This document shows, one piece after another, positions 29,991 through 62,905 of a DNA stretch of 64,000 bases. A program made the translations under genes and the position numbers. The notes beneath the pieces are model-generated. The model searched no databases. It saw only the letters and a list, made by a program, of their open reading frames with translations, and had not been told where the DNA came from. The DNA is taken from IMG/VR virus record IMGVR_UViG_3300012344_000001, positions 43,955 through 107,954 of that record; one strand, given 5' to 3'. Origin of the DNA: a virus (lineage: Duplodnaviria > Caudoviricetes). How positions within the stretch are numbered: the first letter of the stretch is position 1; each line of letters opens with the position of its first letter.

Positions 29991-31538
29991 TTACTGACAG
30001 TTATCGAACACGGCGTTGTTTTTGATTTCGCGACCGCAACACAGGCAATACAGCTTGCCACCCGCAGTCACCTGCACCTTGGACATATCCGTGTTGGCGG
30101 GCGAAATCAGCGCCTTCTTGATTTCGGGATAGGAACGCTTCAAGGATTCCCACTCGTGGATGTCGCTATAGTGATGGTTCGTCACGTCGGCATACACGGG
30201 CTTGTTCCCGAAATACTTTTCGCCGTGAATCCGCTTCAAGTCACCATAGTTATCCCAATCGGTCACGCCGATATAAGAACCGATGGTGTTTTCCAGCAGT
30301 TCACGCGCTTTTTCAGACACGACTTCGATGTCCTTGTGCTGGGGATATTCGCGACCAAACAGGAACGTGCAGTTCATACGGTCGCCGTTGATAATCTGGC
30401 GCCAAGACTTGGAATTGCCCTCAAAGGCGTTCTTGCCGAAGTTATATTCGTCGCGTTCGCCATCCTGTCGCGCCACGATGCGGTCGTACAGATACGTCTT
30501 GCCGTTGTCGCGATACGCAATCAGCGCGTTCGGGTCCCAAATCCACTGGACAGTTCCATAGTTCATAGAACCGTACAATTTCTGACAGGTGCTCCACCCA
30601 TGCATATTCGTGCCGGAGGTCATGAAGTCGTACGGGTCGATGCTAACGCATACAAACCCCTTAATCATGCGATTCTGCATGACCTTGCTGAAGTCGATGT
30701 CAAATTCCTTGTTCTGGAAAAGCTGGCTAAAGAACTTGGAAATCTTCATGCCCTTCTTGTAGACGTCGGGCGCATAGGTCTTGTAGAAATCGCACTTCGG
30801 CATTTCGTTCTTCGTGAAGTAGTCGATGCCGTCGCGACCACCCGCTTCGACAACCTTGTCGATAGACGCGGCATACTGGGGCCACTTCTTGTACATATCA
30901 TACACCATGGGGCGCATTTCGTTCGCGTCCATCGTATATTCGATGGGCGTGCGGATGATAAGCTGATGACCAAATGCGACATAGTAGTCGTACTTCGCTT
31001 CTGCCCACTTACGAAGAAGAATGTCGATTGCTTCGTCGGTCGGCTTCTTGCCGTTACCAACAGCGACGGAACAAAGCTTGCGGAAGCGGTCGCGGTCGAC
31101 CTTATCCATCATTTCCTTGATAATATCTTCGTCCTGCACGTCGTGGTGGATGCTATAATTCTTCATTGCGGGCTTCGCGCTTTCGACTTCGGGTTCCTTG
31201 TCGCGGAAAGAAAGCACAGAAAATGGAACGGCAACGTCGAAACCAGTCTTGAAGTCGCCGGTGAAACCGTTCGCGCGAACCTGTTCCTGACGTTCGGCGG
31301 GAATTTCGTCGTTGATTGTCACGTCAACGCTTTCGCCAGAATCCATCTGCCAACGCATATAATCGTCGGCAAGAAGGCAAAGCCCCTTAGCCCAAAGAAG
31401 TTCCTTGGGATATTCCTTGTCCGCGTCGAAACGATTGATGATAAGAACATCGCCGTCATGAATGCCGCGAAGATGGGGATATTTCGAAAAATTCCAAGCA
31501 TCTTCCTTGCATTCAACCTTTTTGACAATCTCTGCCAT
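29991..31538 (-). CDS. Unknown phage protein, paralog of 28809..29879
   Basis: KGMKISK, SIDPYDFMTS..WSTC, C-terminal CLCCG. Confidence 0.7.
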   Translation of the reverse strand: MAEIVKKVECKEDAWNFSKYPHLRGIHDGDVLIINRFDADKEYPKELLWAKGLCLLADDYMRWQMDSGESVDVTINDEIPAERQEQVRANGFTGDFKTGFDVAVPFSVLSFRDKEPEVESAKPAMKNYSIHHDVQDEDIIKEMMDKVDRDRFRKLCSVAVGNGKKPTDEAIDILLRKWAEAKYDYYVAFGHQLIIRTPIEYTMDANEMRPMVYDMYKKWPQYAASIDKVVEAGGRDGIDYFTKNEMPKCDFYKTYAPDVYKKGMKISKFFSQLFQNKEFDIDFSKVMQNRMIKGFVCVSIDPYDFMTSGTNMHGWSTCQKLYGSMNYGTVQWIWDPNALIAYRDNGKTYLYDRIVARQDGERDEYNFGKNAFEGNSKSWRQIINGDRMNCTFLFGREYPQHKDIEVVSEKARELLENTIGSYIGVTDWDNYGDLKRIHGEKYFGNKPVYADVTNHHYSDIHEWESLKRSYPEIKKALISPANTDMSKVQVTAGGKLYCLCCGREIKNNAVFDNCQ

Positions 31539-31644
31539 GTTAAGACCTCCGTTATATATTTTTTGTTTGCTTGCCTATGCTATTATAATAGCACTATTTT
31601 TCGTTTTTGTCAACACTTATAGAAAAAGGCGTATTTCTACGCCT

Positions 31645-31720
31645 TGGTGACGCACAGAAGGAATTGCAACTTCTATCTCCGCCGTGAGAAGGCGGCATCC
31701 TTACTTTAGACGAGTGCGCC
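31645..31720 (-). tRNA. tRNA-Glu (CUC) with encoded CCA and an atypical T loop
   Basis: Acceptor GGCGCAC/GTGCGTC, anticodon arm CCGCC-TTCTCAC-GGCGG, T stem AGAAG/CTTCT, ACCA end. Confidence 0.8.
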
Positions 31721-31768
31721 ATGTGTAGGGAAGGGACTTTCGTCCCTTCCCGCTGGGGATTGCGATGA

Positions 31769-32161
31769 TTACTGATACATCGCGATGGTGGCACGGGCGG
31801 CGGCAGCAGCGGCTTCAGCATCCGCAAGTGCCTTCTTAGCCGCAGTCACGCGGGGGTCTTCAGCGGTGTAGATGGTGACAAGCGTGGCACAGGCAGGTCT
31901 GCCGGTATAGACCATCTTGATACCCTCCGAAATCGCATTAAGGACGGGGGTGGCATCGAAGATTGCGATGCTCTGAATGGGGTCGTGATTCTTGCCAATC
32001 GTAAGGTCGTCGTCGTTGACGCGCAGATACGTCCCCTTGGACGTGTAAACCGCACGATTGCCCTCGGAATCGGACAAAAGAACATAAGTGTTACCACGCT
32101 TGCTCTTCACGATAGCACCAGGCAGAACATCCTTCCAGCTCTTCACAACATAATCAGTCAT
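31769..32161 (-). CDS. Hypothetical protein
   Basis: 130 aa, SD AAAGGAG, own promoter. Confidence 0.7.
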   Translation of the reverse strand: MTDYVVKSWKDVLPGAIVKSKRGNTYVLLSDSEGNRAVYTSKGTYLRVNDDDLTIGKNHDPIQSIAIFDATPVLNAISEGIKMVYTGRPACATLVTIYTAEDPRVTAAKKALADAEAAAAAARATIAMYQ

Positions 32162-32309
32162 TTTTCATTTCTCCTTTAATATTAAAGATTTTTATGTTCA
32201 CAGGCGACCAACCTGTTCACACCGTTTCCTGTTATGCTATTATATTAGCACACATTTTGGTTTTTTGTCAAGGTCGTGCGGCGGTTAAACCGCACGACCT
32301 GTAATTTCC

Positions 32310-32382
32310 TCGCCCATATCGTAGTCGAAACGATGTCTCCAGATTGAAGGTCTGGCGGCTTAGACCGCTTGCCTAATGGGCG
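32310..32382 (-). tRNA. tRNA-Glu (UUC) with C at position 33, no encoded CCA
   Basis: Acceptor CGCCCAT/ATGGGCG, anticodon arm CCAGA-CCTTCAA-TCTGG, T arm ATCGT-TTCGACT-ACGAT; own promoter at about 32398-32429. Confidence 0.8.
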
Positions 32383-32431
32383 ATTTCCAACTGTGCTATT
32401 ATAATAACACACGCTTTAGATTTTGTCAAGT

Positions 32432-32686
32432 GCTTACCGCTATCCCACTTTCACGGTTTGCAACAGCTAATCCTTGCCGCCTTGAAATGACGGTTTCGCC
32501 GGTAGCCCTAACGCATAGCCAATCCACGTTGTTGTGGCGGCGTTGCAGATAGGCGATTCTACCATGTTAATAATATTCGCACGGATTTCAATGGGCGCTG
32601 AACCCTACCTTGGCGGACTGTTTTACAGCACGCTACTTGTCGGGTTGGTGGCGAGGTTATTTTAGGTGTCACCCGCCATTCCACCA
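32432..32686 (-). ncRNA. Unknown structured RNA, copy 1
   Basis: 45-nt core 32641-32685 shared with 37948-37992, with compensatory changes; 3' boundary uncertain. Confidence 0.6.
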
Positions 32687-32688
32687 TG

Positions 32689-32857
32689 CGGCTGATGTGC
32701 TACTACGCCAAATTATCCACGGCAATCATAGGCGGTCAAGAAATATCATTCTGCATGATTGCAACAGCAAATATTTCCCACGGCACAAAGACCGTCATGA
32801 CTCGCCCCGCGACAAATTCCTTAGACGATGGCTGCTTCTAAGCCTACGTTTCAACCG
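32689..32857 (-). ncRNA. 23S rRNA GTPase-associated-centre (L11-binding) mimic with about 105-nt insertion
   Basis: GTAGGCTTAGAAGCAGCCATC..TAAGGA..[insert]..GGCGTAGTAGCAC, closed by helix CGGTTGA/TCAGCCG; promoter directly upstream at about 32865-32894. Confidence 0.75.
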
Positions 32858-32890
32858 TTGTGATTATAATATCACACCGTTTTGCTTTTG

Positions 32891-33868
32891 TCAATAGTTG
32901 TCGCCGTAATCCGGCTGGAAGTTCCAAGAAGTCGACCAAACCTTTTCGCCGTTATATTCAATCTGGATGAAATCATCTTTGACGTCCAGCACAACAAACG
33001 AACGATAAGCGGGCAAATATACGCCTGAAATTGGACTATTGTAATTCGGCTTCTTGTAGATGGCGCTGGAACCGTACTTCGTGAATACTTCATCGCCCTT
33101 GATGTAGAACTTCGACCAAAAGTGCGAACCCTTATTGCCATAGTAATTCTGCGTGGGCTTTGGCTTCGCTTCACAGTACGGATAGATAATGTCATCCTTC
33201 GTGTCGGCGATAATCTTCACCACCTTGTCGATGGTGCCCTGCAATTCGGCATAGCGAACATATTCTTCGGGATGGTGTTCGTTATAATAGCCGCAGGACA
33301 GATTGACGCTTGCAAGGTCAAACACGGGCGACAGATTGCAGATATCCGTGAACGAACCCTGCGCCTCGACAAAGCCGTGTTCATCAATGAACTTCTTGAA
33401 CTGCTTGTTGTCGCACTTATAATAGACCGAATCCTGCTTGCCGCGACGGTCAATCTGAATCATGTAGCCTACACCAGCAACGCGACCCTTGATTTCCTGC
33501 GCCGCCCGCTTCGTGGATGCACCGCCGACTTCTTCGTCCGTGCTGAAAAACAGATAAGGACGCTTCCCGCTTTCTTCTGTTGCCTTCAACACCGCCAGAA
33601 CGGCATAGACGCCACAGCGGTCGTCACCGCCAATGCCCATGGGCGAACTTACCTTTTCGCCATCATCGACAATCTTGGTCGGCTGACGCTTATGCACCGT
33701 ATCAAGATGCGCACAAAGCATCGTCGGGCAGTTGCCGCTGAAAAACAGATAGTCGCCACCATTGACCGTGTTTGCCAGACCATAATATTCGCTTAACTGC
33801 TGATAAAGCCACGCAAGCAAATCTTCCTTGACGGGCAGGCAAAGTTTCTTGAAGCCTTCTTTGTTCAT
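32891..33868 (-). CDS. M20/M28-type zinc peptidase with C-terminal SH3-like domain
   Basis: AHLDTVH, GGDDRCG, DEEVG, IDRRG, SFTD, GYYNEH. Confidence 0.8.
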   Translation of the reverse strand: MNKEGFKKLCLPVKEDLLAWLYQQLSEYYGLANTVNGGDYLFFSGNCPTMLCAHLDTVHKRQPTKIVDDGEKVSSPMGIGGDDRCGVYAVLAVLKATEESGKRPYLFFSTDEEVGGASTKRAAQEIKGRVAGVGYMIQIDRRGKQDSVYYKCDNKQFKKFIDEHGFVEAQGSFTDICNLSPVFDLASVNLSCGYYNEHHPEEYVRYAELQGTIDKVVKIIADTKDDIIYPYCEAKPKPTQNYYGNKGSHFWSKFYIKGDEVFTKYGSSAIYKKPNYNSPISGVYLPAYRSFVVLDVKDDFIQIEYNGEKVWSTSWNFQPDYGDNY

Positions 33869-34047
33869 TTAATGCACCCCTTCTTGTAGCCGCCAATAAT
33901 GCCTTCGATTGACGACGCTTCAAAAATGTAGATTTTCCTTGTGATATCTTTCAGGTCGCGCTTGGTTTTCAGCAGTTTGCCGCCGTTCGCCAGCAGGTAT
34001 TCACACATTCGCGGACTGTGGACAATTTTTTCATTCTTAAAAGCCAA
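33865..34047 (-). CDS. Small hypothetical protein
   Basis: Coupled ORF; similar pattern to 17847..18011. Confidence 0.5.
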   Translation of the reverse strand: MAFKNEKIVHSPRMCEYLLANGGKLLKTKRDLKDITRKIYIFEASSIEGIIGGYKKGCIK

Positions 34048-34063
34048 TACACGTCACAACCCT

Positions 34064-34639
34064 TCACACAACGTCGCGCCAGCCAATACGGTCGGTCAAC
34101 AGCGGCGTCATCACATAGCTTCCACGTTCGCGGGCGTTGTAGCCGTCCTTGTAAGACCAATCCTTGATGCGTTCGTCGATATAGTCCTTTGCCGCGTCCA
34201 GTTCTTCCTTCTTGAACTCCGGCATCACCATGATGCGAACATCTTCAAAGGTCAGGTCGCCAACAACAATGTCTGCCGACATATTGCCGCCCAGCGTGAA
34301 ATTCATACAAACGTAATCTTCCACGCCAAGGAAGGACTTGTCGAACAGTTCGATGTCATCCTTGGAAAAATCAAGCTTCGTGCCATAACCCGTGCGACAA
34401 AGACCGCCGTATTCCGCGCCCAGCTTGCGAAGTTCTGCGTCCGCAATAATACAGTGCATTGTGTTGCAGTTCTGTTCGGGAATATAGATTTCCTTTACGC
34501 GATATGTGCTACCGTCCTTGTTGGTTTTAAGGAAAATAGCCGCCATTCGCGCCGAACTGGCAACCGCATACTTACGCAGTTCGTTATATACCGCCTGTGA
34601 CATCTTAATGTCGGGTTCTGTTCCGCGATAACTAATCAT
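34064..34639 (-). CDS. Possible degenerate JAB/MPN-fold protein
   Basis: YRVKEIYIPEQ and FSKDD resemble JAB, but the HxH ligands are absent. Confidence 0.4.
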   Translation of the reverse strand: MISYRGTEPDIKMSQAVYNELRKYAVASSARMAAIFLKTNKDGSTYRVKEIYIPEQNCNTMHCIIADAELRKLGAEYGGLCRTGYGTKLDFSKDDIELFDKSFLGVEDYVCMNFTLGGNMSADIVVGDLTFEDVRIMVMPEFKKEELDAAKDYIDERIKDWSYKDGYNARERGSYVMTPLLTDRIGWRDVV

Positions 34640-34863
34640 GCCAGCACCTCCCTGTTAATCGGAACAACGGTCATGATTTGCACGTCGTCGCGCACCACAA
34701 TCGTTCTTCGCAAGCCCTTGGCTTCAAGCCTTGCGTCTGCATCCGCCCTTGCCGCATCAACCTGTTCGCGGGTAGCGTAAAAGCTACAAGTGTCACAGTT
34801 GATGTCGCCAGAAAGAACGGAACATCCGCCCATGCCGTTGCAACCAAAGCAATCACGTTTCAT
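34636..34863 (-). CDS. Cys-rich hypothetical protein
   Basis: DCFGC..CSVL..CDTCSFYAT. Confidence 0.6.
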   Translation of the reverse strand: MKRDCFGCNGMGGCSVLSGDINCDTCSFYATREQVDAARADADARLEAKGLRRTIVVRDDVQIMTVVPINREVLA

Positions 34864-34977
34864 TTTTCGTCCTCCTATTCATGCGGTTTAACCGCTATGA
34901 TACTATAATAGCACACCGTTTAGATTTTGTCAAGCGTTTTTGTATCCGCCAAAGAATGTCTTTAACTAAAATGGTAA

Positions 34978-35104
34978 TGACATAATCCACCGCCTCTTGG
35001 TGTTTGTATTTCTACAATTTCCACATCATTGATTTTGCTTGCACTTGCGAAGTCTTACAAATCTCCGTGGACATTCAGGACGTACCCCGCCCCAAGATAT
35101 TGCT
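34978..35104 (-). ncRNA. Probable omega/reRNA scaffold and right end of tnpB-1
   Basis: Non-coding tract after tnpB ending ..GATTATGTCA; boundary inferred. Confidence 0.45.
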
Positions 35105-36217
35105 TTACGCTAACATCTGTAATCCTTCTTGCAGGATGTTTAACGCGGCATTTAAGTCGCGCACATGATGCACGCCGCAACAAGGACAATCCCATTCGCG
35201 AACAGACAAATCCTTTGTTTTCGGATTCTTCCAACCGCAGAAAGAACACAACTGACTTGATGGGAAATATCTATCAACAATATGAAGATTCTTTCCATAC
35301 CACGCACACTTATATTCTAATTGCCTGCGGATTTCATAGAATGAAACTTCCTGTGCCGCCTTTGCGCCAAAATGATTCTTTTTCATTTCAGATACCTTCA
35401 AATCTTCTATGCAGATGTCATCATATTTGCGCACAATGTCCGTCGTCAGCTTGTTGATGTAGTCTTTTCGCTGGTTGGCGACGTGTTCCATAGCCCTTGC
35501 AAGTTTAATTCGCGCCTTTTTCCAGTTTTCGCTACCGTTTGTTTTTCGCGATAGTTCTTTCTGTAGACGTGTAATCTTCTTTTGTGATTGCTTTAGGAAC
35601 TTAGGATTAGGAACAACTGTTCCATCTGAAAACGTCATTAGATTATCTGCTGAATTTAAGTCGATACCGATAGATTTTCCGGTTTTAGGTAGATGTTTTT
35701 CGGGGACATCAGTACAACAAACAGATATATAATATTTGTCTGCTGGTGTTTTAATGACCGTGACAGACAGGATTCTGCCTTCTACTTTTTTGCTGACGCA
35801 ACATTTCACCATACCTATTTTAAGCAGCTGAACACAGTCATCAAACAGGTGAACGCCAGTTCCAAGGACTCGATACGACTGCATTGTCTTTTTTGATTTG
35901 AAACGCGGATAGCCAACGCTTTGACCTTTTTTGATTCCACGAAAGAAATTAGAATAAGCACAATCTAAATCGCGCAATGATTGTTGCAAACCGACGGCGC
36001 TAACTTCGCGCAAATATGCAAATTCTTCCGTCTTTTTAAGACTTGTCAAATCTTTCATGCAGTCAAATCCGCCTATTCGTTTCTTTTCGGTTTCCCATGC
36101 AGTTTTGCGCATTTCAAGATAATGGTTATAAACTTTACGACAACAGCCGAAAGTTCTTTTCATGTGTTCTTTTTGTGCATCATTCGGATAAATGCGGAAC
36201 TTATATGATTTTTCCGT
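35105..36217 (-). CDS. tnpB: TnpB (IS200/IS605 family); RuvC triad intact, start codon apparently ACG
   Basis: (T)EKSYKFRIYP, GYPRFKSKK, GIDL, IEDL, PSSQLCSFCG, CPCCG, RDLNAA; no tnpA. Confidence 0.9.
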   Translation of the reverse strand, partial: TEKSYKFRIYPNDAQKEHMKRTFGCCRKVYNHYLEMRKTAWETEKKRIGGFDCMKDLTSLKKTEEFAYLREVSAVGLQQSLRDLDCAYSNFFRGIKKGQSVGYPRFKSKKTMQSYRVLGTGVHLFDDCVQLLKIGMVKCCVSKKVEGRILSVTVIKTPADKYYISVCCTDVPEKHLPKTGKSIGIDLNSADNLMTFSDGTVVPNPKFLKQSQKKITRLQKELSRKTNGSENWKKARIKLARAMEHVANQRKDYINKLTTDIVRKYDDICIEDLKVSEMKKNHFGAKAAQEVSFYEIRRQLEYKCAWYGKNLHIVDRYFPSSQLCSFCGWKNPKTKDLSVREWDCPCCGVHHVRDLNAALNILQEGLQMLA

Positions 36218-36223
36218 TATCTA

Positions 36224-36772
36224 TCATCCCTTCATAATTCCACCGAAAAATGTATTATCTATTATGGCATACTGGGTATAATTATAAAAATTATGATGCC
36301 TTTGAGAACGAAAATAACAAACCCAGTCTGGAATTGTGCATCCATTGTAAATAATATAGTCCACGGCCTCATATTGCATTTCATTGGGGGTCACGTTCCC
36401 CAGCTTATTGCCCAAATCAAACTGCGGGACACCGCCGCTATTCTGTTTAATTACTTCTTCAATGCTGTTAGGAAATTCGTCAGACTTCACGCGATTCATC
36501 ACAACGCTTACGACAGCGCGCTGACATTCCATAGATTCGCCACGCGCTTCCGTCCATAATAGACGCGCCAGCATTTCACGTTCGGTTGACGTTACGAAGA
36601 AATATGGCGTCGGTTCCACATAGACTTCCACATAGTCGGTGTGGTGAAACAGTTCTGTCCGCACGATAATTTCGACTGGAACTTCTTCTTCTGGTGCCAA
36701 AAGCGGCATAATTGTAGAAATAAACGTCCAGCAAACACAAATCCAAAGGAACAGCTTTTTGATGTCTTTCAT
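36224..36772 (-). CDS. Cell wall hydrolase (SleB/Hydrolase_2)
   Basis: LARLLWTEARGE, VVMNRV, FPNSIEEVIKQ; N-terminal TM. Confidence 0.8.
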   Translation of the reverse strand: MKDIKKLFLWICVCWTFISTIMPLLAPEEEVPVEIIVRTELFHHTDYVEVYVEPTPYFFVTSTEREMLARLLWTEARGESMECQRAVVSVVMNRVKSDEFPNSIEEVIKQNSGGVPQFDLGNKLGNVTPNEMQYEAVDYIIYNGCTIPDWVCYFRSQRHHNFYNYTQYAIIDNTFFGGIMKG

Positions 36773-36788
36773 ATTGTACCCCTTTTGC

Positions 36789-36998
36789 TTAGATGATTTT
36801 TGCGCGGGTTTGCACCGGTTCAAAGAAGACGGTTTCAACGTCCCATTCGTTCCCAGCATATCGCCCTTCGATGATGCGCACTTCAATATAGCCCTGTTTT
36901 AGTCTTGAAGTGCTTGTCACCATGCACTTCACATGATAATCTGTTTGGGTATACTGTTCGCTCGTATTACACCAAACAATTTGACCGACTTTGAACAC
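36789..36998 (-). CDS. SH3-like small protein, tail AKII
   Basis: FKVGQIVWC..YHVKC; paralog of 39265 and 50440. Confidence 0.7.
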   Translation of the reverse strand: MFKVGQIVWCNTSEQYTQTDYHVKCMVTSTSRLKQGYIEVRIIEGRYAGNEWDVETVFFEPVQTRAKII

Positions 36999-37001
36999 CG
37001 A

Positions 37002-37219
37002 CTACACCACCTTTGCCTTTAGATAAATCTGCCTTTCAAAACACGACACGCGAATATCGGTCAGAACATCGCTGCCGCTTTTTGCGACAAGCTTTTTGTC
37101 GACAATCGCATAGTCGCGACGGACGTCGGCATATTTTTCGTCTTTACAGCAACGACGCGATAAACGTTCGTGTCGTATACCAGCAAATCACCAATGCGCG
37201 GCTTATATCCGTTAGTCAT
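37002..37219 (-). pseudogene. Frameshifted SH3-like gene, tail AKVV
   Basis: MTNGYKPRIGDLLVYDTNVYRVVAVK, then a 1-nt shift near 37135-37145 to DEKYADV...LKAKVV*. Confidence 0.6.
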
Positions 37220-37506
37220 GCGACCACCCTTCCCAAAATTTGGTCGTGGACAATGCGACCCTTCTTTTCGCCATTCTTGCCGATGGAATACCAGCGTCCA
37301 TCAATCGCCAGAATGTCATAGATTCCCCACGCGCCAGTCTTCGTGAACACCTTGTCGCCAACATGGAACTGCGTGGTGTTCTTGACGGGTGCGACGTTGT
37401 ATCGCTGACCACCGACCTTGATTACGCCATATTCGCCAAGACGTAACTTGGCGGCGGCGAAATCGTTTGGAACAGATTCAAAAGATGCAAAAAATTTTTT
37501 ACCCAT
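37216..37506 (-). CDS. Hypothetical protein with C-terminal SH3-like region
   Basis: FHVGDKVF; ends GRVVA. Confidence 0.6.
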   Translation of the reverse strand: MGKKFFASFESVPNDFAAAKLRLGEYGVIKVGGQRYNVAPVKNTTQFHVGDKVFTKTGAWGIYDILAIDGRWYSIGKNGEKKGRIVHDQILGRVVA

Positions 37507-37744
37507 ATTTATTCTCCATCATATTCAAAGAAAAAGACTGGTTCGCCACCCATTGACACAACCCAATCAGGGTTTTCGTTCTGTATTCTGTGGCAGAATT
37601 TTTCCGCCTGCTTGCGAAACAAAAAATAGACGTGTGAAAATGTGCCATTTTCTGCCGACAATTCGATGTCCCATATTAGAATGTGTAAATCTGCAATAAA
37701 CGCTTTGATTCTTTTCATACCGACCACCACAAAAAATTAGAATC

Positions 37745-37995
37745 GGCAGGGGTTTAATCGCTATACGGCTTGACGCCCCATCAAACATCCGTATCCGCTA
37801 TTGCCGTTCGCAACAATGCCCGTCCATGTAGTAATTCGACGGGATGATTTCGACACTTTGTATACCGAACGAAACCTTTGCCTGTTGCCGCGAAATATCG
37901 GTTTTGGCTTAACGCGCCCCGTGGAACACGCCAGTGTCACGCCCTTTCGGGCTGGTAGTCGGGTTATTTTAGGTGTCACCGACTATTCCACCGAA
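37745..37995 (-). ncRNA. Unknown structured RNA, copy 2
   Basis: Starts right after promoter TTGACA-17 nt-TATTAT (about 38004-38033); core shared with copy 1; several hairpins. Confidence 0.6.
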
Positions 37996-38010
37996 CATGA
38001 TATTATAATA

Positions 38011-38238
38011 TCACACAACTTGCGCTTTGTCAAGTCCCTTTGCAAGTTCAAAGAAGCAGGTGTGGCTACCATAATCAAACCAATAATGGTCTGAAAATTC
38101 GCACCAGCGGACATAGAACGACTGAAAGTCGTGTTCTTTGCACCAGTCGCCAATCATATCAAGGGCTTCGTTTACGTTGTCAGCGTTTCCAACGAACGTG
38201 CGGTCGCCTTTTCTGTCAAGCCATTCAAGACGCATCAA
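38011..38238 (-). CDS. Hypothetical protein, tail AQVV
   Basis: YVRW..FDYGSHTCFF; tail overlaps a promoter. Confidence 0.6.
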   Translation of the reverse strand: MMRLEWLDRKGDRTFVGNADNVNEALDMIGDWCKEHDFQSFYVRWCEFSDHYWFDYGSHTCFFELAKGLDKAQVV

Positions 38239-38486
38239 TCGTCACCTTCCATCCGCGTCAGTTCGTAGATACTGTTGCGTGTCACGATGCGAATATCGCC
38301 TTCGCACAGATAGTCTACTTCCTGAATTGTGGACGTGTGGACACCACCACCATCGACAGGGCGAATATAGCCACGTTCGCCAACGTTGATATTTTCAAGG
38401 TCGGTTACAACCTTGCCGTTGACCAATTCGTGGACATAGGTTAATTCGCGACCTTCGCGGGGATAGACATTGCAATAATACTTCAC
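38235..38486 (-). CDS. Hypothetical protein
   Basis: HTSTIQEV...TRNSIYEL; probable GTG start. Confidence 0.55.
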   Translation of the reverse strand: MKYYCNVYPREGRELTYVHELVNGKVVTDLENINVGERGYIRPVDGGGVHTSTIQEVDYLCEGDIRIVTRNSIYELTRMEGDD

Positions 38487-38797
38487 AGAATCTTCGCCAC
38501 CTTTCTTTCGGGGATGTAAAATGTTCCGATTGTACGCCAATTTTCATGTTCGGATGGATACCAGTCAAGGTCACTATCCCAGCCGTTATATTCACCGTCT
38601 TGGTTAAACCAAAGGTAGTTGCCGTGCCAATACGCTTTGCCGATTTTTCTAAGAAAAGATACGGCGTCATTGTTTGATTCGACAAACACAACAACTTCTG
38701 AAAAATCTATAAACGGAATCGTTTTTATGTCGGCTATGCTATCAAGTTTTTGCCAGTTCAACTTAACGCCACCAATTTCTTTGCGAAGATTCATCAT
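38483..38797 (-). CDS. Hypothetical protein, tail AKIL
   Basis: Coupled ORF. Confidence 0.65.
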   Translation of the reverse strand: MMNLRKEIGGVKLNWQKLDSIADIKTIPFIDFSEVVVFVESNNDAVSFLRKIGKAYWHGNYLWFNQDGEYNGWDSDLDWYPSEHENWRTIGTFYIPERKVAKIL

Positions 38798-39033
38798 GTT
38801 TTCACCCACTTCTTGCGATAGAAATTGGTTTTGTCCTGCTTCTTGAACCACTTGTTCACGGCTTCCACCAACGACTTATTGCAATCCGCACACATCTTAA
38901 TGCGCGGTTCAAAGTCAAGGTGCCAGTCGGCAGTTCCAGCGATTTGGTTCATGTTTGCCACATATTCCACCTGCATATTGTTGCCACAAATGGGGCAGGC
39001 GGGAATCAGTTTTTCGGCTTTTGGTCTTGCCAT
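38794..39033 (-). CDS. Zinc-ribbon protein
   Basis: CPICG...CADC. Confidence 0.6.
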   Translation of the reverse strand: MARPKAEKLIPACPICGNNMQVEYVANMNQIAGTADWHLDFEPRIKMCADCNKSLVEAVNKWFKKQDKTNFYRKKWVKT

Positions 39034-41136: not shown

Positions 41137-42375
41137 GTGAACTACACACGATGATAAAGCACCGGTGCTTCCTAATCAATATCTCTAACGAGACAAGTTT
41201 ACTTAGGCTATCCCCGTAGTTCCTACGGTTCTTATTCTCAATCCTTCATTAAGAATATTTATTGCAGCGTTAATGCCTCTATCGTGAACAGTTCCACATT
41301 GCGGACACACCCATTCTCTAACAGACAAATCCTTTATTTCTGTATTTTTGTATCCGCATTTACTACACAACTGCGAACTTGGATACCACGAATCAATTTT
41401 CACAATTTCTCTTCCGTACCAGTTTGCTTTGTATTCCAGTTGTCGTACAAATTCTGACCATGATACATCAGCAATAGACTTAGCGAGTTTATGATTTTTC
41501 ATCATATTCTTAACTTTCAATGTTTCCAGACATATGACTTGGTTTTCATCAATCAGTCTTTTTGAAAGTTTGTTTAGAAAGTCCTTGCGTTGATTCGTTA
41601 TTTTCTCGTGACAACGTGCAACTTTAATTCTACATTTCTCTCGATTTTTACTTCCTTTTTTACAACGAGACAAGTCTTTCTGCAACTTCCGCAGTTTCTT
41701 TTCTGATTTTTTCAAGTATTTCGGATTTTCAATCACTTTGCCATCAGAAGTGGTTGCGAACCCCTTGATTCCCAAATCTATTCCAAGTTCAGAATCACAT
41801 GGAATTTTCTTTGGAATATCTTCTTGTTCAACAAGAACCGAAACATAATATTTTCCCGATGGCGTTCTTGTAATGGTAGCGTGTTTGATTGTTCCAAAAA
41901 AATTCCTGTGTTTCTTAATCCTGACAAGTCCAATTTTCGGAAGGTTAATGTGTCGTTCTGTCACGCGGATATTGGCTTGATTTGTAGTATAAGAATCATA
42001 TCGCGTTTTCTTACTTTTGAATTTTGGGAACCCAACTTCTGGTCGCTTGAAGAAGTTGTTGTACGCTGTCCGTAAATTCATCTGAGCATTTGACAACGCT
42101 TGCGCATCGACTTCTCGAAGCCATGGAAATTCGTCTTTATATTGGGCTGGCGTATTTTTCAGGTTTTGTTTTGTCTTATTGTAAAACTCGATTTTATCAG
42201 CAAGCATACGATTGTAGATAAATCTGACGCAACCGAAGCATTTTGAAAAATAAGTTTTCTGTTCTTCATTTGGATACATTCTATATTTGTAGGCAATCAA
42301 CATATCTACAATCACTTCCTTTCCGATATAGTTCTCTTTCTTTTGCCGACTATGCTAAAGCATAGCGGATATCTT
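41137..42375 (-). mobile_element. tnpB-only IS200/IS605-family element
   Basis: Left-end hairpin CCGCTATGCT-TT-AGCATAGTCGG at about 42346-42368; right end ..TAGTTCAC at about 41137; lower GC than flanks. Confidence 0.7.
41203..42315 (-). CDS. tnpB: TnpB with RuvC-III Asp replaced by Gly (HDRGINAA)
   Basis: [41 protein letters not shown]. Confidence 0.9.
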
Positions 42376-46047: not shown

Positions 46048-46076
46048 ATTATATCATGCGTTTTAACTTTTGTCAA
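46048..46076 (-). promoter_or_regulatory. Sigma-A promoter overlapping the dnaE stop codon
   Basis: TTGACA-17 nt-TATAAT; one of more than 20 near-consensus minus-strand promoters in the window. Confidence 0.8.
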
Positions 46077-49000
46077 GTGAACTTGGAAGTGACGATATCG
46101 TATTCTACAAGGCAATCGCAGTACGTTCCGGTTTGTTCAAAGCCGCTTTCAGTTTTTCGCCAGTTCGGTCGCTTTTGAAACTTCTTGCAATACAAGATGT
46201 CATCTGCCTTAAACTTGTGTTTGCCATAGAATTTTTTGTCCGCTTTGCACTCTATGGATTTTCCGGTCGCGATACAATACAGCGTAACGCGCGGCGTAAA
46301 TTTGGTATCTGCCGCCAACACATAGCAGAAGTTTTTCGGAAGTTCGGGCTGTGTGAACGACACATAGCCAAGATATTCGCGGTCGGCTTGTATGCGTTCT
46401 GCCAGCGGCAAATATTCGTCGGGCAAAGACGCTTCAAACGCTTTCAGTTCAGCGATTCGCGCTTCTTTCGTCTTGGCAACATACGTTTTCTTGTAGCGGT
46501 CGAAGAATTTGTCAACGATTGCCAACAGCTTCTTGTTTTTGCCAAATTCGCTAAAGAAGCCGATGGTGGTCAGCACCTTGATTTGGCGGGCGTCAACCGT
46601 GGTATTTTCGCGAAGATAGACAAGAAGGTCGGCGAACGTGGGAAAATCCATGAAGCGGATAGAATAAAGCTGGTCGGCGCAATCGGCAGAAATATATTTG
46701 ATGGAACCAATTCCTTTGTATATAGTTCTTGTGGATTCATCAAATGAATATTCCAGCTTCGCGGAACGAAATCTTCCCGGCTTTAGATTTATGCCAAAAT
46801 ATTTCAGTTCCTTCGTTAGCCTTGATGTCTTTTCTTGGTTTCCGTCGTAAATATTAAATACGACAGTGTAGTAATGAAGCGGATAGTTTTTCTTCAAATA
46901 CGCTCCATACAGACAATCAAGCGCCGTCGCGGCACCGTGGGGACTGTTAAACCCATAGTTCATTTGTGCCTGCATATCTGACCACATTTTATCAAATCCG
47001 TCGTCTGAACCAGTGTTTTTCTTCCAGTTTTCGCGTAGTCCTTGTTCGAGTTTTTTGAAATCTTCCGGCTTGATTTTTTTCTTTGAAATCTTCTTTATTA
47101 GACCAATAGATTCTGCCGGCGTTACGCCAAGAAACTCGAACATTGACATCAGGGATTCTTGGAAGATTACTCTGTGTCCAGTTGGTTCAAGAACTTTGTC
47201 TAACGCTTCTGAACCGGTGGTATGTGGCTTTCTCGCAATAAAATCATCTCGTTGTGGCGCAAAATTTGGTCGAATTGCACCAACAAACATCGCCAGTTCT
47301 TCCATGGAACGCGGCTTATATTTTCGCAACAATGCTGTCGCCCAATCTTCGCCAACTTGGTTCAAGGTGCAGGTAATTCCATCGTCAAAAAGTTTCCATG
47401 TATCTTCGTCGATATTTTCTAAAAGACGTTTTACGGGCATAATTGGCTTGCCGATTGATTTGAAAACTTTTGAAATAATGTCCCAAACGCTAACGATAAG
47501 ATAATCATTTTTAAGATATTTCCACGAATCGGCTTCAGAAGATGTTATCATTGCGCACAAGAAATCACCAAGTTTTACAACACCAACCTCTTCTTCGATA
47601 TCGCAATTCATCAAAAGATGGGCGCATGGATGCACAGACGCGCTTACAATCGTACCGACATACTTTTGCGATTCACTAATATAAGCGCCCCATTTTTTGT
47701 CGTCGCGATATGCATCAATATCCTTAGACACTTCATTTACTTCGCCATATGGTTCACCAGCAGAACGACACACATTCCTAAACGCTTCACTTTCTCCCAT
47801 AGTACCATACGCCAACATTGGGAAACATCCGTCTTCGCCAAGAAGTTCGCGACTTGCCTTCACAAAAGGTTCTTGACCGACAACGTTAGCATCGAAATCT
47901 GGAAGCGCGTGGTTTTCCAGCAGTCGTGCGGTCGACATAAACCTTTCGCCGTACATCGGAAGCGTTGTTCTAAGACGATCAATTTGTGTCAAGCCAAGGA
48001 TTTTATTCAGAATGAACGCACCACACGAATTATGAACAACAATATTATTTATTGTGTAACTATGACAACCATCTACTTCCATGTCGTATACCGTGGTCGT
48101 CATGTTCTTGTGGATTTCGACAGATGTAACCGGCAAATACCAATATTCATCATCTTCTACTAATTTATTTATATTTCGATGATAACCGCCATTTAAGGTT
48201 CTTAACTTATAAGATTCGGCGTTTTTATACCCACGAACATCGTCGTATGCAAGCCGCACATCTAAAGATACAGGAGAAGAACCGTCTACAATATCATGAA
48301 GCGTTTTGTAGGTTCCACAAAGCGATAGCGACGTAGTATCGTAGCAGACCTTATTATATTCTTTCCCACTGCTACCATCGGCTTTCATCATTCCAATATA
48401 AATCCATTTAAGAAGTTCTTTCTTTTGATTCAACAAGTCCTTATTAAATGTTTTTTGTTTCCCTTTTTTCGACTTGAAGAATTCGGTTGAAAACCACGCG
48501 TTCAATATTCCGCTAAACATTGTCATTTGAATAAGGTTTTTGTTTTTAGCATAATTGTAATATATTGGAATTCCTATTCTTTGCGAAATCTTCTCAAACA
48601 CATACCTATTGAATCCATTTTTTGTTGTGTTATTTATGGCAAGTCCTATACCGTTGCTTCTTTGTGTCCATCCGTCTGCATACATAAGTCCGACAAAGGC
48701 ATTCCACATATAGTCCATAGAAATATACCTTGGTATACGTCTTCTTATAAATCCATGTTTCTTACAGTATTTAGAATAGTCTTCCATTGTCTTAAATGGA
48801 ATATTGTCAAACATATCAGCCAATGATTTTTTCGTTTTGCCGTTCGTTCCGATTTTTCCATTCACAACACTTAATGCAAATGCCTTGCTTGTAATACCAG
48901 CACGACCCAACTCGCTTGGGCTATATGGATATTTCGCTGGGGTTGGAACAACTTCGTAAATATAATTTTCATCGAATTCATATCCGAAAACATTATATTT

Positions 49001-50434
49001 ATTTAGGTCATATACGATTTCTTCATCGTATTCGTGTTTTAATTTTGGACAACAAAGCAAGCTTCCAACAGACAGTTCGTCTGCACAAACGTATTTTCTA
49101 CACCCATCTTTATAGACAAGTATTTTGTGGTCGGTGGTACAAATATTTTTATATTTTTTGTAACTACTTCCTTGGCACCTATATGTAAATTCAATCATGT
49201 CTTCGCATATATCATACGACATGGTTTTATTTACCCTGTGCCACATTCTATCTTCCGAAAGAACTTCGTCCCCAACAACCACAGAGTCTATTGTCTTCAT
49301 TGCGTTTGGTGTTCTTATAAGCGCATCTTTTGTAAAACACCCGCGGCCCGTGCGAGTCAAGACGCCACCATATTTGTTTATAGCCAAGTCGAACAGCTTG
49401 TCGTTGAGAAGAAAATAATCAGACGTGTGGACTTCGCTTGTTTCTTCAATAACCTGCATTTCCTTTCGACATTCGGCGGCATACTTTTTTCTTTCTTCTG
49501 GCGTCACTTCATCTTCTTCCATGACCTTGTTAAATTTTTTATTTACAATATCCTTCAGAATAACGATTTTTTCTTCTTCCGTCTTGCCTGCGTATATGGT
49601 TGGCATCTTGATTGTTCTGTCAATGTTGATGTTTTCGCAGGCGTCGAACGCAAGCGTGTTATTTATTGCAGAAACAATCTGCGGTCTTGTCAACACGCCC
49701 TGTTTTTCAAATCGCGAATACATAACATCAATAGTGGGATAATCAAGAATAAACGAATCTTCTTCGCCGTAATTTATGCCTTTGCCTTTTAGAAATTCAA
49801 GCCGTTCCTTGGCTTGTTCTGGATAAATATAATGACTGTCATTTGCTGCAATTATATCCAACCCATGTTCTTTTGCGAAGGAAATCGCCTTCTTGTTTAT
49901 TTCAATCTGATGTTCTTCGTTATGGTTTTGGACTTCAAGGAAAATATTTTTGCCAAACTTTTCCACCAATGGAAGAAGAATTTGATTGGTGGCGTCTTCG
50001 TCGCGAAGCAACCCCGCCATACATGCCGAAGTAATAAACAGTTCGTCATCATCAAAATTATCCGTTAAATCAGATAAAAACAGGCGCGGCTTATAATAAT
50101 ACCCGTCCCTGTTTGCGTGGCTACTTGCTTTATTAAGTTTCTTTCGTGCCACATTTGTCTTGGGAATTAAGATGATATGATAATTTCTATTGTCTTTTTC
50201 AAGCGGGTTTGGTACTATATAGCCTTCCATACCGAATTTACAGTCAAGCCCATACTTGTCACAGACTTCACGCGCTTCGAAGATATCACCACCGCTTCCA
50301 TGCTCGGTGCTAAATATATTTTTTTCACCAAGTTCAATGGCGCGCTTGGCATAATCTTCGATTTTAACATTAACATCTGGTGTAAAAATATTTGAAACGT
50401 GTGTATGTTTGTGATAATTGTTATACCTATCCAA
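46073..50434 (-). CDS. dnaE: DNA polymerase III alpha subunit with intein
   Basis: PHP motifs HKHT, TEHG, NDSHY; GRG|S; PDFD; KNDYL; YGFNSPH. Confidence 0.92.
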   Translation of the reverse strand: MDRYNNYHKHTHVSNIFTPDVNVKIEDYAKRAIELGEKNIFSTEHGSGGDIFEAREVCDKYGLDCKFGMEGYIVPNPLEKDNRNYHIILIPKTNVARKKLNKASSHANRDGYYYKPRLFLSDLTDNFDDDELFITSACMAGLLRDEDATNQILLPLVEKFGKNIFLEVQNHNEEHQIEINKKAISFAKEHGLDIIAANDSHYIYPEQAKERLEFLKGKGINYGEEDSFILDYPTIDVMYSRFEKQGVLTRPQIVSAINNTLAFDACENINIDRTIKMPTIYAGKTEEEKIVILKDIVNKKFNKVMEEDEVTPEERKKYAAECRKEMQVIEETSEVHTSDYFLLNDKLFDLAINKYGGVLTRTGRGCFTKDALIRTPNAMKTIDSVVVGDEVLSEDRMWHRVNKTMSYDICEDMIEFTYRCQGSSYKKYKNICTTDHKILVYKDGCRKYVCADELSVGSLLCCPKLKHEYDEEIVYDLNKYNVFGYEFDENYIYEVVPTPAKYPYSPSELGRAGITSKAFALSVVNGKIGTNGKTKKSLADMFDNIPFKTMEDYSKYCKKHGFIRRRIPRYISMDYMWNAFVGLMYADGWTQRSNGIGLAINNTTKNGFNRYVFEKISQRIGIPIYYNYAKNKNLIQMTMFSGILNAWFSTEFFKSKKGKQKTFNKDLLNQKKELLKWIYIGMMKADGSSGKEYNKVCYDTTSLSLCGTYKTLHDIVDGSSPVSLDVRLAYDDVRGYKNAESYKLRTLNGGYHRNINKLVEDDEYWYLPVTSVEIHKNMTTTVYDMEVDGCHSYTINNIVVHNSCGAFILNKILGLTQIDRLRTTLPMYGERFMSTARLLENHALPDFDANVVGQEPFVKASRELLGEDGCFPMLAYGTMGESEAFRNVCRSAGEPYGEVNEVSKDIDAYRDDKKWGAYISESQKYVGTIVSASVHPCAHLLMNCDIEEEVGVVKLGDFLCAMITSSEADSWKYLKNDYLIVSVWDIISKVFKSIGKPIMPVKRLLENIDEDTWKLFDDGITCTLNQVGEDWATALLRKYKPRSMEELAMFVGAIRPNFAPQRDDFIARKPHTTGSEALDKVLEPTGHRVIFQESLMSMFEFLGVTPAESIGLIKKISKKKIKPEDFKKLEQGLRENWKKNTGSDDGFDKMWSDMQAQMNYGFNSPHGAATALDCLYGAYLKKNYPLHYYTVVFNIYDGNQEKTSRLTKELKYFGINLKPGRFRSAKLEYSFDESTRTIYKGIGSIKYISADCADQLYSIRFMDFPTFADLLVYLRENTTVDARQIKVLTTIGFFSEFGKNKKLLAIVDKFFDRYKKTYVAKTKEARIAELKAFEASLPDEYLPLAERIQADREYLGYVSFTQPELPKNFCYVLAADTKFTPRVTLYCIATGKSIECKADKKFYGKHKFKADDILYCKKFQKRPNWRKTESGFEQTGTYCDCLVEYDIVTSKFT
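48029..49339 (-). mobile_element. Intein with LAGLIDADG homing endonuclease in DnaE (437 aa)
   Basis: GRG|CFTKDA...TTDH...VGLMYADG...IGMMKADG...VVHN|SCG. Confidence 0.9.
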
Positions 50435-59132: not shown

Positions 59133-59593
59133 TAGATATACTTCCTTCTGAATTTTGACGTAATATCTTCTTTCGCACTTCCTTTTTCCATAACATACAT
59201 TCGCTGATTGGTTGTTGGTTTGTCCAGCCCGCCAAATTGTTCGTCATAACGTCCGATTTTAACGTAGTCAAATGCGCCAACACAATCTTTAAGGTCGTCC
59301 AAGCTGTCATAACCGCTATAAAGGCACGTCTTATAGCCTACGCACATTTTCGCCAGATGAACAAGTTCCTGCTGGTCTTGGTCGCCACCCATAAAGCAGA
59401 CACAAGTAATCGCGTCTGCGTATTGGCGGATTGCGTCCGCAATATCCGCAGAAAGGTCGCGACCGACATCTTCCCACAGATATTGCGAATGGCAACCCTT
59501 GCAATGGTGGGTGCAACCACTAATGTTAAACACCAACGAGACTTCGTTTGGAACTTCTTGGAATGCGATAGTATAGCCGGTGTATTTCAACAT
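59132..59593 (-). CDS. nrdG: Anaerobic RNR activase (radical SAM)
   Basis: CTHHCKGCHS, GGD, KIGRY, TNQR. Confidence 0.88.
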   Translation of the reverse strand: MLKYTGYTIAFQEVPNEVSLVFNISGCTHHCKGCHSQYLWEDVGRDLSADIADAIRQYADAITCVCFMGGDQDQQELVHLAKMCVGYKTCLYSGYDSLDDLKDCVGAFDYVKIGRYDEQFGGLDKPTTNQRMYVMEKGSAKEDITSKFRRKYI

Positions 59594-62500: not shown

Positions 62501-62670
62501 ATCTTTTCGCGTTTGCACAGTTCTTCCTGACACGTCGCGATGTTTTTGGTTTCCACGTTCGCGTTTGCATCAACTTCGCTTGCAGACGCCGCATTAGACG
62601 GCTTTCGATATTTTTCAATAAAATCTACGTATTTTCGGTAATTCGCATTGTAATCTTCAAATTTCATCAT
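59593..62670 (-). CDS. nrdD: Anaerobic ribonucleotide reductase (class III) with intein
   Basis: YKHDE, PY|CV, ASCCRL, CNDC..CPAC, glycyl-radical loop RVIGYL. Confidence 0.92.
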   Translation of the reverse strand: MMKFEDYNANYRKYVDFIEKYRKPSNAASASEVDANANVETKNIATCQEELCKREKIGANRLLMIDKLTQMYGEDMAREYIRQLESHEIYKHDETNIAPYTYGAHEIVNVRYVGKTYTIPMWRLYSLCEDDEELLDEDKDVWAKYPVDMFVEDRDGFTKIQRLIRKKRHRDLVRVKTAFSNDIIVTDNHPIIVEDDIDKTIPASESLGYKQYRCSSKMKFGGQTEIDSREVFKAGHMNFIEYDDCFVMQTSTKNTWYAVPKKVKLDRNFGYLVGFFIGDGNFSLYSSDICVTQAKDDVLKKIGNIIYTHLNGAARIQYNISDEKYQLITPNPFMFVLLKNVFNIGHLAMNKSMPENIFDYNEDFAKGIIEGLIDSDGSIDGGGCYSIRTSSRTLTMQIATVVNAFGITSGCGVQQTKFGCNEKIQQKYQLFGVRFREKGEPFTFGMAEKSKKARRIEKGQKNSFDEWQTITNVEPIDNEPYLDMNDYIYDITTESHSFVCNGFWVHNCVSITMYPFLFDGMTKIGGISTAPTNLDSFCGAFINLVFAVSSQFAGAVATPEFLMYMDYFLRKDYGDDYYLRADEIVTMPSVKRQRTIRDVVHDKASQVVYSINQPAAARGFQAAFWNIAYFDEPYFKGLFETFIFPDGSTPCWESLEWLQREFMNWLNEERRKAVITFPVETMNLLSDGTKYVDENSADFTAEMYARGHSFFTYTSDSVDSLASCCRLRNELQDNTFSYTLGAGGVSTGSKGVITMNINRLVQNAMKNRRNISDVVAEQVEKVHKYLIAYNEIVKDNLNARLLPVYDAGFISMEKQFLTASINGVVEGAQFLGIDISPNDKFFEYLESVLKPIYEINRRDRTDEVMFNCEMAPSENLAVKNAKWDKVDGYFVPRDCYNSYFYLVEDESCNVADKFILQGKKSTKYLDGGAANHVNLAEHLTKEQYRRILDYAIKTGCSYFTFNIPNTVCNDCGHISKHMLDRCPACGSENLDYATRVIGYLKRISRFSEARQREAAKRFYDSQVNI
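61150..62370 (-). mobile_element. Intein with LAGLIDADG endonuclease in NrdD (407 aa), first residue Thr
   Basis: APY|TYGAHEIV...VTDNH...VGFFIGDG...EGLIDSDG...WVHN|CVS. Confidence 0.88.
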
Positions 62671-62680
62671 TCCACCAGCC

Positions 62681-62905
62681 TTAGATATGTTTTTCCACCC
62701 ACTCTTTCGCCTGCAAAAAGTTATAATACGCCCCATCAATCATTACAATCGGTAGTTCGTCTGTATTATGTTCCTTTGCAACGTCCTTAACCTGTTGGTT
62801 GTCGTGGATGACTGTCACCATCGCATCTTTTACGTCTTGCATTTTGCGTTCAGCAAAAAAGCAATGGGGGCATCCTGTTCGCCCATAAATTTTTACATCA
62901 TACAT
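62681..62905 (-). CDS. Glutaredoxin / NrdH-like protein
   Basis: GCPHC, LPIVMIDG. Confidence 0.8.
   Translation of the reverse strand: MYDVKIYGRTGCPHCFFAERKMQDVKDAMVTVIHDNQQVKDVAKEHNTDELPIVMIDGAYYNFLQAKEWVEKHI

Follow-up and report, generated by a model that had tools for sequence, protein, structure and literature searches.

TYMV-type acceptor arms, known from the tRNA-like structures of plant viruses, are pseudoknots with the strand order S1 5', L1, S2 5', S1 3', L3, S2 3', A-CCA; the TYMV element terminates an RNA genome on its 3' side, ends in a free CCA and also has T-, D- and anticodon-like arms. In tRNA punctuation, a tRNA or tRNA-like fold placed between RNA units, such as the spacer tRNAs and the mascRNA-type elements, would offer RNase P a site at which their ends can be defined, and the stable RNAs of the T4 tRNA cluster provide a case for comparison. 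The preQ1-I aptamer is a small H-type pseudoknot, and the groove of its first stem holds an A-rich third loop. Substrate determinants of RNase P include pairing of RCCA with the P15 loop and a U at position -1, and hairpins serve as model substrates (PMC11143913). Cleavage of the pseudoknotted TYMV tRNA-like structure by RNase P is attributed in that source to its refs 218 and 219.

A 45-base module comparable in part with these systems occurs on the minus strand of a Caudoviricetes phage genome (IMG/VR record IMGVR_UViG_3300012344_000001). All coordinates refer to the window, the 64,000-nucleotide stretch at positions 43,955 to 107,954 of that record. An earlier sequence-only reading had described two copies with an identical 19-nt core, and both were recovered exactly as first quoted, at 32641-32685 and 37948-37992. 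The core has two sites at 0 mismatches (0.01 expected by chance) and no third site when up to 3 mismatches are allowed. A pattern search and a covariance model, the latter being a check proposed in that reading, both recovered exactly this pair of copies from the complete genome of 107,954 bp (73.1 bits for copy 1 and 75.9 bits for copy 2 with the covariance model) and two from the genome of the closest relative. The copies differ, as had been described, by a real change of the stem from GGCG/CGCC in copy 1 to AGUC/GACU in copy 2.

Structurally, this is an autonomous H-type RNA pseudoknot. Stem S1 is formed by four bases at the 5' side and four loop bases of a 5-bp hairpin whose helix is stem S2, while the loops L1 (GAAU), L2 (UGA) and L3 (A-rich, 9 nt) are almost invariant across relatives. 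The 3' strand of S2 is followed by one variable base and then by an unpaired ACCA. The positions of these elements and of the flanking features are given in Table 1.

Table 1. Features of the two module-bearing RNAs and their surroundings (window coordinates)
Feature	Position	Strand	Basis or description
Promoter of RNA 2	38005..38033	-	TTGACA-17-TATTAT with TG extension; 11/12 consensus positions
Module copy 2	37953..37992	-	Sequence, pair counts, covariance model match
Copy 2 S1	37992-37989 with 37975-37972	-	
Copy 2 S2	37983-37979 with 37962-37958	-	
Copy 2 ACCA	37956-37953	-	
GNRA-loop hairpin right after copy 2 ACCA	37941..37952	-	Alignment
Domain B	37738..37940	-	Conserved RNA of ~200 nt, covarying helices
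Promoter of RNA 1	32866..32894	-	11/12 consensus positions
23S helices 43/44-like element (GTPase-associated centre)	32689..32857	-	BLAST, relatives
Module copy 1	32646..32685	-	Sequence, pair counts, covariance model match
Copy 1 S1	32685-32682 with 32668-32665	-	
Copy 1 L1 (GAAU + one base)	32681-32677	-	
Copy 1 S2	32676-32672 with 32655-32651	-	
Copy 1 L2 (UGA)	32671-32669	-	
Copy 1 L3 (A-rich, 9 nt)	32664-32656	-	
Copy 1 unpaired ACCA	32649-32646	-	
Variable hairpin right after copy 1 ACCA	32601..32645	-	Alignments
Domain A	32436..32600	-	Conserved non-coding RNA of ~165 nt, kept in L003, L010, L013 and L022
Promoter of tRNA-Glu	32401-32429	-	Own promoter, just downstream of RNA 1
tRNA-Glu(UUC)	32309..32383	-	Only confident tRNA in the genome

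Across 14 distinct sequences, metagenome relatives included, pairing holds in 95.7% of cells, compared to 29-44% (with 0-1 compensated pairs) in controls slid by 1-3 columns. S1 pairs without exception in the 14 sequences, with changes of both partners at two pairs (GC/AU and UA/CG). The pseudoknot tentatively proposed earlier between the 5' GGUG and the loop CACC is shown to be real by relatives in which both strands change jointly, to AGCG:CGCU and GGCG:CGCC. The S2 pairs 15-40 to 19-36 are likewise paired in every sequence, the pair types being UA/CG, then CG/UA/GC, then GC/GU. This stem has five pairs in a register slightly shifted from the four-pair stem originally quoted, whose outermost pair is often open in relatives. 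Altogether, pairing in the two helices has been preserved through five or more independent compensated changes, and the G-U pairs are compatible with the minus-strand RNA only. The ACCA is invariant (14/14), one base 3' of S2, and no conserved pairing partner for it was found across the module contexts. By single-sequence folding, the whole RNAs are not more stable than shuffled sequences (z of -0.68 and +0.22) and local hairpins show only a mild stability excess. A long helix proposed by RNAalifold in RNA 2, in which the first 25 nt at the 5' end pair with a segment ~50 nt downstream, was rejected because its changes are one-sided only and because it is broken in the RNA 1 relatives, in which the stem changes and the downstream segment does not.

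The module matches no catalogued RNA family, in line with the sequence-only reading. It would represent a compact RNA family new to the catalogue, and its comparative support is unusually clean. The search of window positions 31500-39000 against Rfam 15 returned, at E<=10, only tRNA-Glu and chance matches, and in four relatives only tRNAs were matched. At the same threshold there was no match to small self-cleaving ribozyme models (pistol, twister, hatchet, hammerhead, HDV-like), to preQ1-I RF00522 or to any riboswitch model; the Rfam tRNA-like-structure families did not match the module, and neither copy was called as a tRNA by ARAGORN or RF00005. The module itself has no likeness to rRNA (best E of 0.46 against the E. 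coli rrn operon by BLAST). Short open reading frames overlap both copies; a protein-coding reading was rejected because they start at different points of the motif, because a stop in copy 2 interrupts the frame that is open in copy 1, and because indels in relatives are not multiples of three. A DNA-level recombination site, for example a folded single strand, was also rejected, since it leaves the pseudoknot covariation and the strand-specific G-U pairs unexplained.

Both copies lie in promoter-driven transcripts. The RNA 2 promoter is conserved in relatives and its expected start falls ~6 nt before S1 of copy 2, which agrees with the earlier placement of this copy at a promoter. In RNA 1, the 23S-like element occupies the space between the promoter and copy 1, in agreement with the earlier description of copy 1 as following an rRNA mimic; it matches nt 1059-1089 of E. 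coli 23S rRNA by BLAST (87% over 31 nt, E of 8e-6) and is optional, being present in the window, L003 and L017 and absent in L010, L013 and L022. Each copy is followed by ~200 nt of non-coding sequence, as had been noted, which is conserved in relatives and differs between the two RNAs. The hairpin after the copy 1 ACCA has covarying closing pairs and varies in length among relatives, and domain A beyond it is limited on its 3' side by the promoter of tRNA-Glu. After copy 2, the closing pair of the GNRA-loop hairpin covaries between G-C, A-U and G-U. Domain B contains near its 3' end (~37814-37740) a second H-type pseudoknot inside a closing helix, whose pairs were read from anchored sequence as MAFFT misplaced one column there. 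This domain ends 10-25 nt upstream of the ribosome-binding site of a small gene with its ATG at 37718. No terminator-like site was found on the RNA strand after RNA 1 or RNA 2, and therefore the RNA ends must come from processing. Neither an RNA ligase nor a CCA-adding enzyme is encoded in the phage genome.

The module is portable: among these gut phages, three conserved RNA domains that are unrelated to one another have it at their front. It precedes domain A in the window, L003, L010, L013 and L022, domain B in the window, L003, L008-L014, L022 and L034-L043, and domain C in L017 and L021. On its upstream side there is either a small hairpin, the 23S-like element or no feature at all. The distance to the expected transcript start is ~0-25 nt in most contexts. 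Internal modules, ~170 nt from the 5' end and behind the 23S-like element, occur in the window, L003 and L017, and in L022 the module sits in a short 5' leader ~110 nt upstream of a start codon. The loops are invariant across lineages in which the flanks were replaced.

In sister phages, the slot in front of domain B is filled by tRNAs and tRNA-like folds, so that the module and a real tRNA interchange at one position. In L030 and L032, ARAGORN calls a tRNA-Leu(CAA) ahead of the same GNRA hairpin and domain B, L021 carries a tRNA-Met (59 bits with Rfam) and L019 a tRNA-Ile-like cloverleaf, and in L017, L031 and L033 there is a cloverleaf-like fold closed by a stem of 8 bp. All of these tRNAs and degenerate tRNA-like elements terminate in ACCA. 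In its 5' half (U, 4-nt S1 strand, GAAU, GG, GA, S1 partner), the module aligns with and follows the D-stem and D-loop of the L030 tRNA-Leu, which is of type II. For three module variants the alignment score was matched by only 1-8 of 500 shuffles; it was reached by 68 of 500 for the L010 variant, and the likeness is modest. Unlike this tRNA, the module is devoid of the acceptor 5' strand and of the anticodon, variable and T arms, and its D-loop-like bases pair with the strand that precedes ACCA.

We consider that the module is best explained as a tRNA-derived mimic of the acceptor end and a putative handle for RNase P or another reader of tRNA ends, a reading to which we assign a probability of about 0.45. 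It would be a shrunken derivative of a tRNA, probably tRNA-Leu, that retained the acceptor end, with S1 corresponding to the D-stem and with S2 and ACCA mimicking the acceptor stem, the discriminator A and CCA. A helix does run 3' into an unpaired discriminator and CCA, and the strand order is that of the TYMV-type arm. In contrast to TYMV, the module has 45 nt and a 3-nt L2 and lies at the 5' side of DNA-phage transcripts. Against an acceptor mimic, the CCA is internal with no free 3' end, the stacked helices comprise 9-10 bp plus the 3-nt L2 versus 12 bp in the acceptor/T arm, and tRNA models give the module no score; the modest D-arm likeness and the restriction of all examples to one clade also weigh against it.

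The most likely reader of such a handle would be the host RNase P, with ACCA, a U preceding the stem and a purine at +1 as its recognition features and the junction of L1 and S2 as its cleavage site. Cleavage would leave a new 5' end buried in a hairpin and would divide terminator-less transcripts with several domains into units, for instance by freeing the 23S-like RNA from domain A. The alternation of real tRNAs and the module in one slot resembles tRNA punctuation, whose elements, however, are cloverleaf-shaped, whereas the module is a minimal pseudoknot for which processing is proposed. For modules placed at the extreme 5' end, a cut would remove only ~15 nt, including one strand of S1. 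As S1 covaries even there, punctuation alone cannot account for its upkeep; another factor that reads tRNA ends may use the same handle. Among the functions suggested earlier, a processing element or binding domain fits best, since features of a tRNA end are present and sister phages have real tRNAs in its place, while nothing supports the ribozyme also listed. The invariant ACCA, the tRNA slot, the shuffling of modules and the difference between the two downstream RNAs are additions to that earlier reading.

The position of most modules near the expected transcript start would also suit a generic 5' cap, in which a triplex-stabilised pseudoknot shields the downstream RNA from 5'-end-dependent decay, by RNase J1 or RNase Y type enzymes in Firmicutes, with no tRNA-type recognition. 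A tRNA in the slot would protect likewise, the slot alternatives all being compact folds; the 5' strand itself is paired in S1, and A-rich third loops are typical of stable pseudoknots. Such a cap leaves the invariant single-stranded ACCA and the invariant L1 and L2 unexplained, and the internal modules of the window, L003 and L017 stand behind a 23S-like element that already pairs the 5' end; we regard this explanation as rather unlikely. Invariant loops on variable stems are what an aptamer-like site would show if it bound a small ligand or a protein of phage or host, regulating or localising the RNA downstream in the manner of a riboswitch. The small H-type topology, with an A-rich third loop placed in the first stem's groove, is shared with the preQ1-I class, although the module has a longer S2 and a shorter S1. 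The location in a leader in L022 would also suit such a site. Unlike the preQ1-I riboswitch, the module shows no link with queuosine genes or a ribosome-binding site, its partners being non-coding RNA domains. An aptamer is unlikely given the lack of a riboswitch family match noted above, the absence of overlap with a ribosome-binding site or terminator, and downstream partners that are unrelated RNAs and differing small genes with no single regulated pathway.

Two further explanations are much less probable. The promoter-proximal position and the two copies per genome recall the put sites of HK022, which have the same arrangement, and pseudoknots are frequent in small ribozymes. Nevertheless, an element rendering RNA polymerase resistant to termination would have no downstream terminators to override, no ribozyme family was matched, and neither idea predicts replacement by a tRNA; both are quite improbable. 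The tRNA slot, the D-arm likeness and the degenerate tRNA-like elements of sister phages could also be read as a decaying tRNA-gene remnant, functionless itself and carried along with a promoter. A remnant should drift freely, which is disfavoured by the compensated changes in both helices; the two paralogous copies maintained per genome and the constancy of the loops where flanks were replaced likewise speak against it, and we judge it very improbable.

If the acceptor-end mimic is correct, the swapping of a tRNA and its 45-nt derivative in one slot offers a direct view of a tRNA shrinking into a processing or recognition handle. To our knowledge, no pseudoknot-type mimic of a tRNA acceptor end has been described before in a DNA phage. 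In the window, L003 and L017, a single transcript joins a mimic of the GTPase centre to a mimic of an uncharged tRNA end, and could, as a highly speculative and improbable extension, act as a decoy or activator. Its targets would then be factors that read both features on the ribosome, for example RelA with L11 or translational GTPases, or else defence toxins that modify tRNA 3' ends, and the phage RNA would manipulate the stringent response or tRNA-targeting immunity.

The phage region consists of shuffled promoter-driven RNA modules, namely the 23S-like element, domains A, B, C and X, and tRNAs. Cultured phages gave no blastn match with the module or RNA 2, and the scan of prokaryote genomes gave two chance matches only, one of them inside a coding region. 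Scans of viral contigs with exact and degenerate patterns recovered one relative only, and eight matches, two of them due to chance, were obtained from metagenomes. All examples of the module come from one phage clade.

The 45-nt minus-strand module represents a new RNA family, which as far as our searches reach is confined to one gut-phage clade. Its two copies in the window bear out the motif of the sequence-only reading exactly, and the pseudoknot that this reading had proposed tentatively is its best-supported feature. The pseudoknot joins S1, formed by the 5' bases and the bases of the hairpin loop, to the hairpin helix S2. Both strands of S1 change together in relatives: GGUG and loop CACC become AGCG and CGCU in three related contigs (L010, L013 and L017), and GGCG and CGCC in a fourth (L022). 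S2 occurs as GUCGG, GCUGG or GCGGG with matching partners. A structure of 4 bp in S1 and 5 bp in S2 plus a variable outer pair was tested on 14 distinct sequences, where 95.7% of cells were paired, compared with 29–44% when the partners were slid by 1–3 columns. The four pairs of S1 and the five inner pairs of S2 were formed in all 14 sequences, and four of these nine pairs show two-sided changes. The outer pair, the first of the four in the stem drawn earlier, is unpaired in six of the 14 sequences. A variant in L038 assigns the base preceding the 3' strand of S2 to the loop. S2 and the neighbouring hairpins contain G-U pairs, and because these would be A-C mismatches on the opposite strand, the RNA has the minus-strand sense. 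The loops GAAU and UGA, a 9-nt A-rich strand and the ACCA tail after S2 are invariant or nearly so.

Within this genome the 19-nt core has two sites and no others even at three mismatches (0.01 expected by chance), and a covariance model finds exactly two copies here and two in the genome of L003. Exact-core scans recovered one viral contig (L003) and six real metagenome contigs (L008–L010 and L012–L014); further contigs (L017–L023 and L030–L043) came to light through homologues of two genes, one for a peptidase upstream of copy 1 and one of 75 aa upstream of copy 2. Prokaryote genomes and cultured phages were scanned as well, with no real hit. At gathering scores the one Rfam 15 family matched in the window was tRNA-Glu; in 31500–39000 nothing relevant appeared even at E ≤ 10, and four related loci gave only tRNAs.

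Five near-consensus promoters with an extended -10 element lie on the minus strand, and each copy is found downstream of one of them. Copy 2 begins about 6 nt past the expected transcript start, and copy 1 lies about 170 nt into its transcript, behind an element that resembles 23S helix 43/44 and matches E. coli 23S rRNA 1059-1089 at 87%. No terminator-like site follows either RNA on its own strand, and they run into a tRNA-Glu unit (RNA 1, with copy 1) and small genes (RNA 2, with copy 2), so that their ends must come from processing.

The contexts of the module vary on both sides, which marks it as a portable unit. Its upstream side may be bare, or occupied by a 6-bp hairpin or by the 23S-like element; the window, L003 and L017 have this last element, whereas L010, L013 and L022 lack it. 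Downstream, copy 1 is followed by domain A whereas copy 2 is followed by domain B; a third domain, C, adjoins the module in L017 and L021. ACCA accompanies it in all three downstream contexts. Domain B ends in a second H-type pseudoknot inside a closing helix, and both stems and this helix show compensated changes across six lineages. Domain B is a separate conserved, structured RNA with conserved loops. Its end almost always lies 10–25 nt ahead of a ribosome-binding site, and the small genes that this site serves differ among relatives; domain B may be either a leader or an independent stable RNA.

Domain B also occurs without the module. The slot before its GNRA hairpin is filled by a tRNA-Leu(CAA) ending in ACCA in L030 and L032, by a tRNA-Met (59 bits) in L021, by a cloverleaf called tRNA-Ile(UAU) by ARAGORN in L019, and, in L017, L031 and L033, by a cloverleaf-like fold that is closed by an 8-bp stem and followed by ACCA. 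The module's ACCA is therefore positionally equivalent to a tRNA discriminator plus CCA. Its 5' half can also be aligned with the D-arm of the tRNA-Leu in L030, at a score reached by only 1–8 of 500 shuffles for three variants and by 68 of 500 for a fourth. We infer descent of the module from a tRNA of this kind; S1 would be the former D-stem, with D-loop bases now pairing with the strand before ACCA.

Among known systems, pseudoknotted tRNA-like structures and tRNA punctuation come closest to the module. Bacterial RNase P recognises a U at -1, the first acceptor pair and the RCCA end, the last by pairing with the enzyme's P15 loop; hairpin model substrates and the pseudoknotted TYMV tRNA-like structure are cut too (review PMC11143913). 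In the module, a helix of 5–6 bp is preceded by a near-invariant U, has a purine at +1 and is followed by A-CCA; in four architectures, a module or tRNA stands between two RNA domains, as in a punctuation layout. Because of these features and the missing own-strand terminators, we rank first a tentative reading from sequence (probability about 0.45), in which the module would mimic a tRNA end and serve as a handle for RNase P or a tRNA factor. Its probability is kept at this level because the CCA lies within the RNA, the stacked helices fall short of an acceptor/T arm in length, and S1 is maintained even in modules at the very 5' end, where cleavage would achieve little. Behind the tRNA-end mimic we place a generic 5' protective cap, then a protein- or ligand-binding aptamer, then a functionless remnant and then a ribozyme or antiterminator.

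Features of the module loci and their surroundings (window coordinates unless a contig is named)
Feature	Position	Strand	Remark
Copy 1	32641-32685	-
Copy 2	37948-37992	-
23S-like element	32689-32857	-	closing helix differs in a compensated way among window, L003 and L017
Domain A	32600-32436	-	follows copy 1; conserved in L003, L010, L013, L022
Domain B	37940-37738	-	follows copy 2; several covarying helices
Domain B in relatives	L017 4217-4478; L019 2937-3199; L021 4104-4388; L030 1884-2100
Domain X, conserved RNA segment	L017 4083-4141; L021 3985-4057; L030 1740-1797		between promoter and tRNA or tRNA-like element, in phages without the module at that site
Degenerate tRNA-like element, called tRNA-Ile(UAU)	L019 2892-2965		atypical T-loop; does not reach Rfam report
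Degenerate tRNA-like element	L017 4142-4236		8-bp closing stem, long extra arm; no ARAGORN call
Weak tRNA-like match	31649-31719	-	28.4 bits, slightly below the cut-off of 29; Glu(CUC)-type anticodon loop
Five promoters	31500-38300	-	11/12 consensus positions each, identical spacing, TG extension
TnpB (OrfB_IS605)	35105-36163	-	between the module copies
TnpB (OrfB_IS605)	41203-42315	-
843-aa protein	3375-5906	-	RdRP family PF05183, E 4.6e-17
DNA polymerase III alpha	46073-50434	-	intein
Anaerobic ribonucleotide reductase	59593-62739	-	intein; LAGLIDADG domain also present

The units that the five promoters drive are very short (RNAs, one tRNA and small genes), and hardly any terminators separate them. 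An intact tRNA-Glu(CUC) is present in relatives such as L010. By blastn, two other phages have 86–88% matches to the core of the 23S-like element, both in unannotated regions: Pseudomonas phage pf16 (29565-29600) and Xanthomonas phage XacN1 (150547-150579). The source record, of which the window covers bases 43955-107954, is a complete virus of 107,954 bp (45.5% G+C) with direct terminal repeats. Among its gene products are a DnaB helicase and a two-barrel RNA polymerase of the YonO type; PF05183 has the fold shared by single-subunit phage polymerases like YonO. The virus's nearest cultured relative, a Clostridium innocuum phage, is very distant (27% identity in DnaB), and several related contigs carry pig-gut metagenome names. 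The TnpB gene between the module copies is missing from L003, where the copies are 4027 bp apart as against 5307 bp here, and is thus a recent insertion unrelated to the motif.
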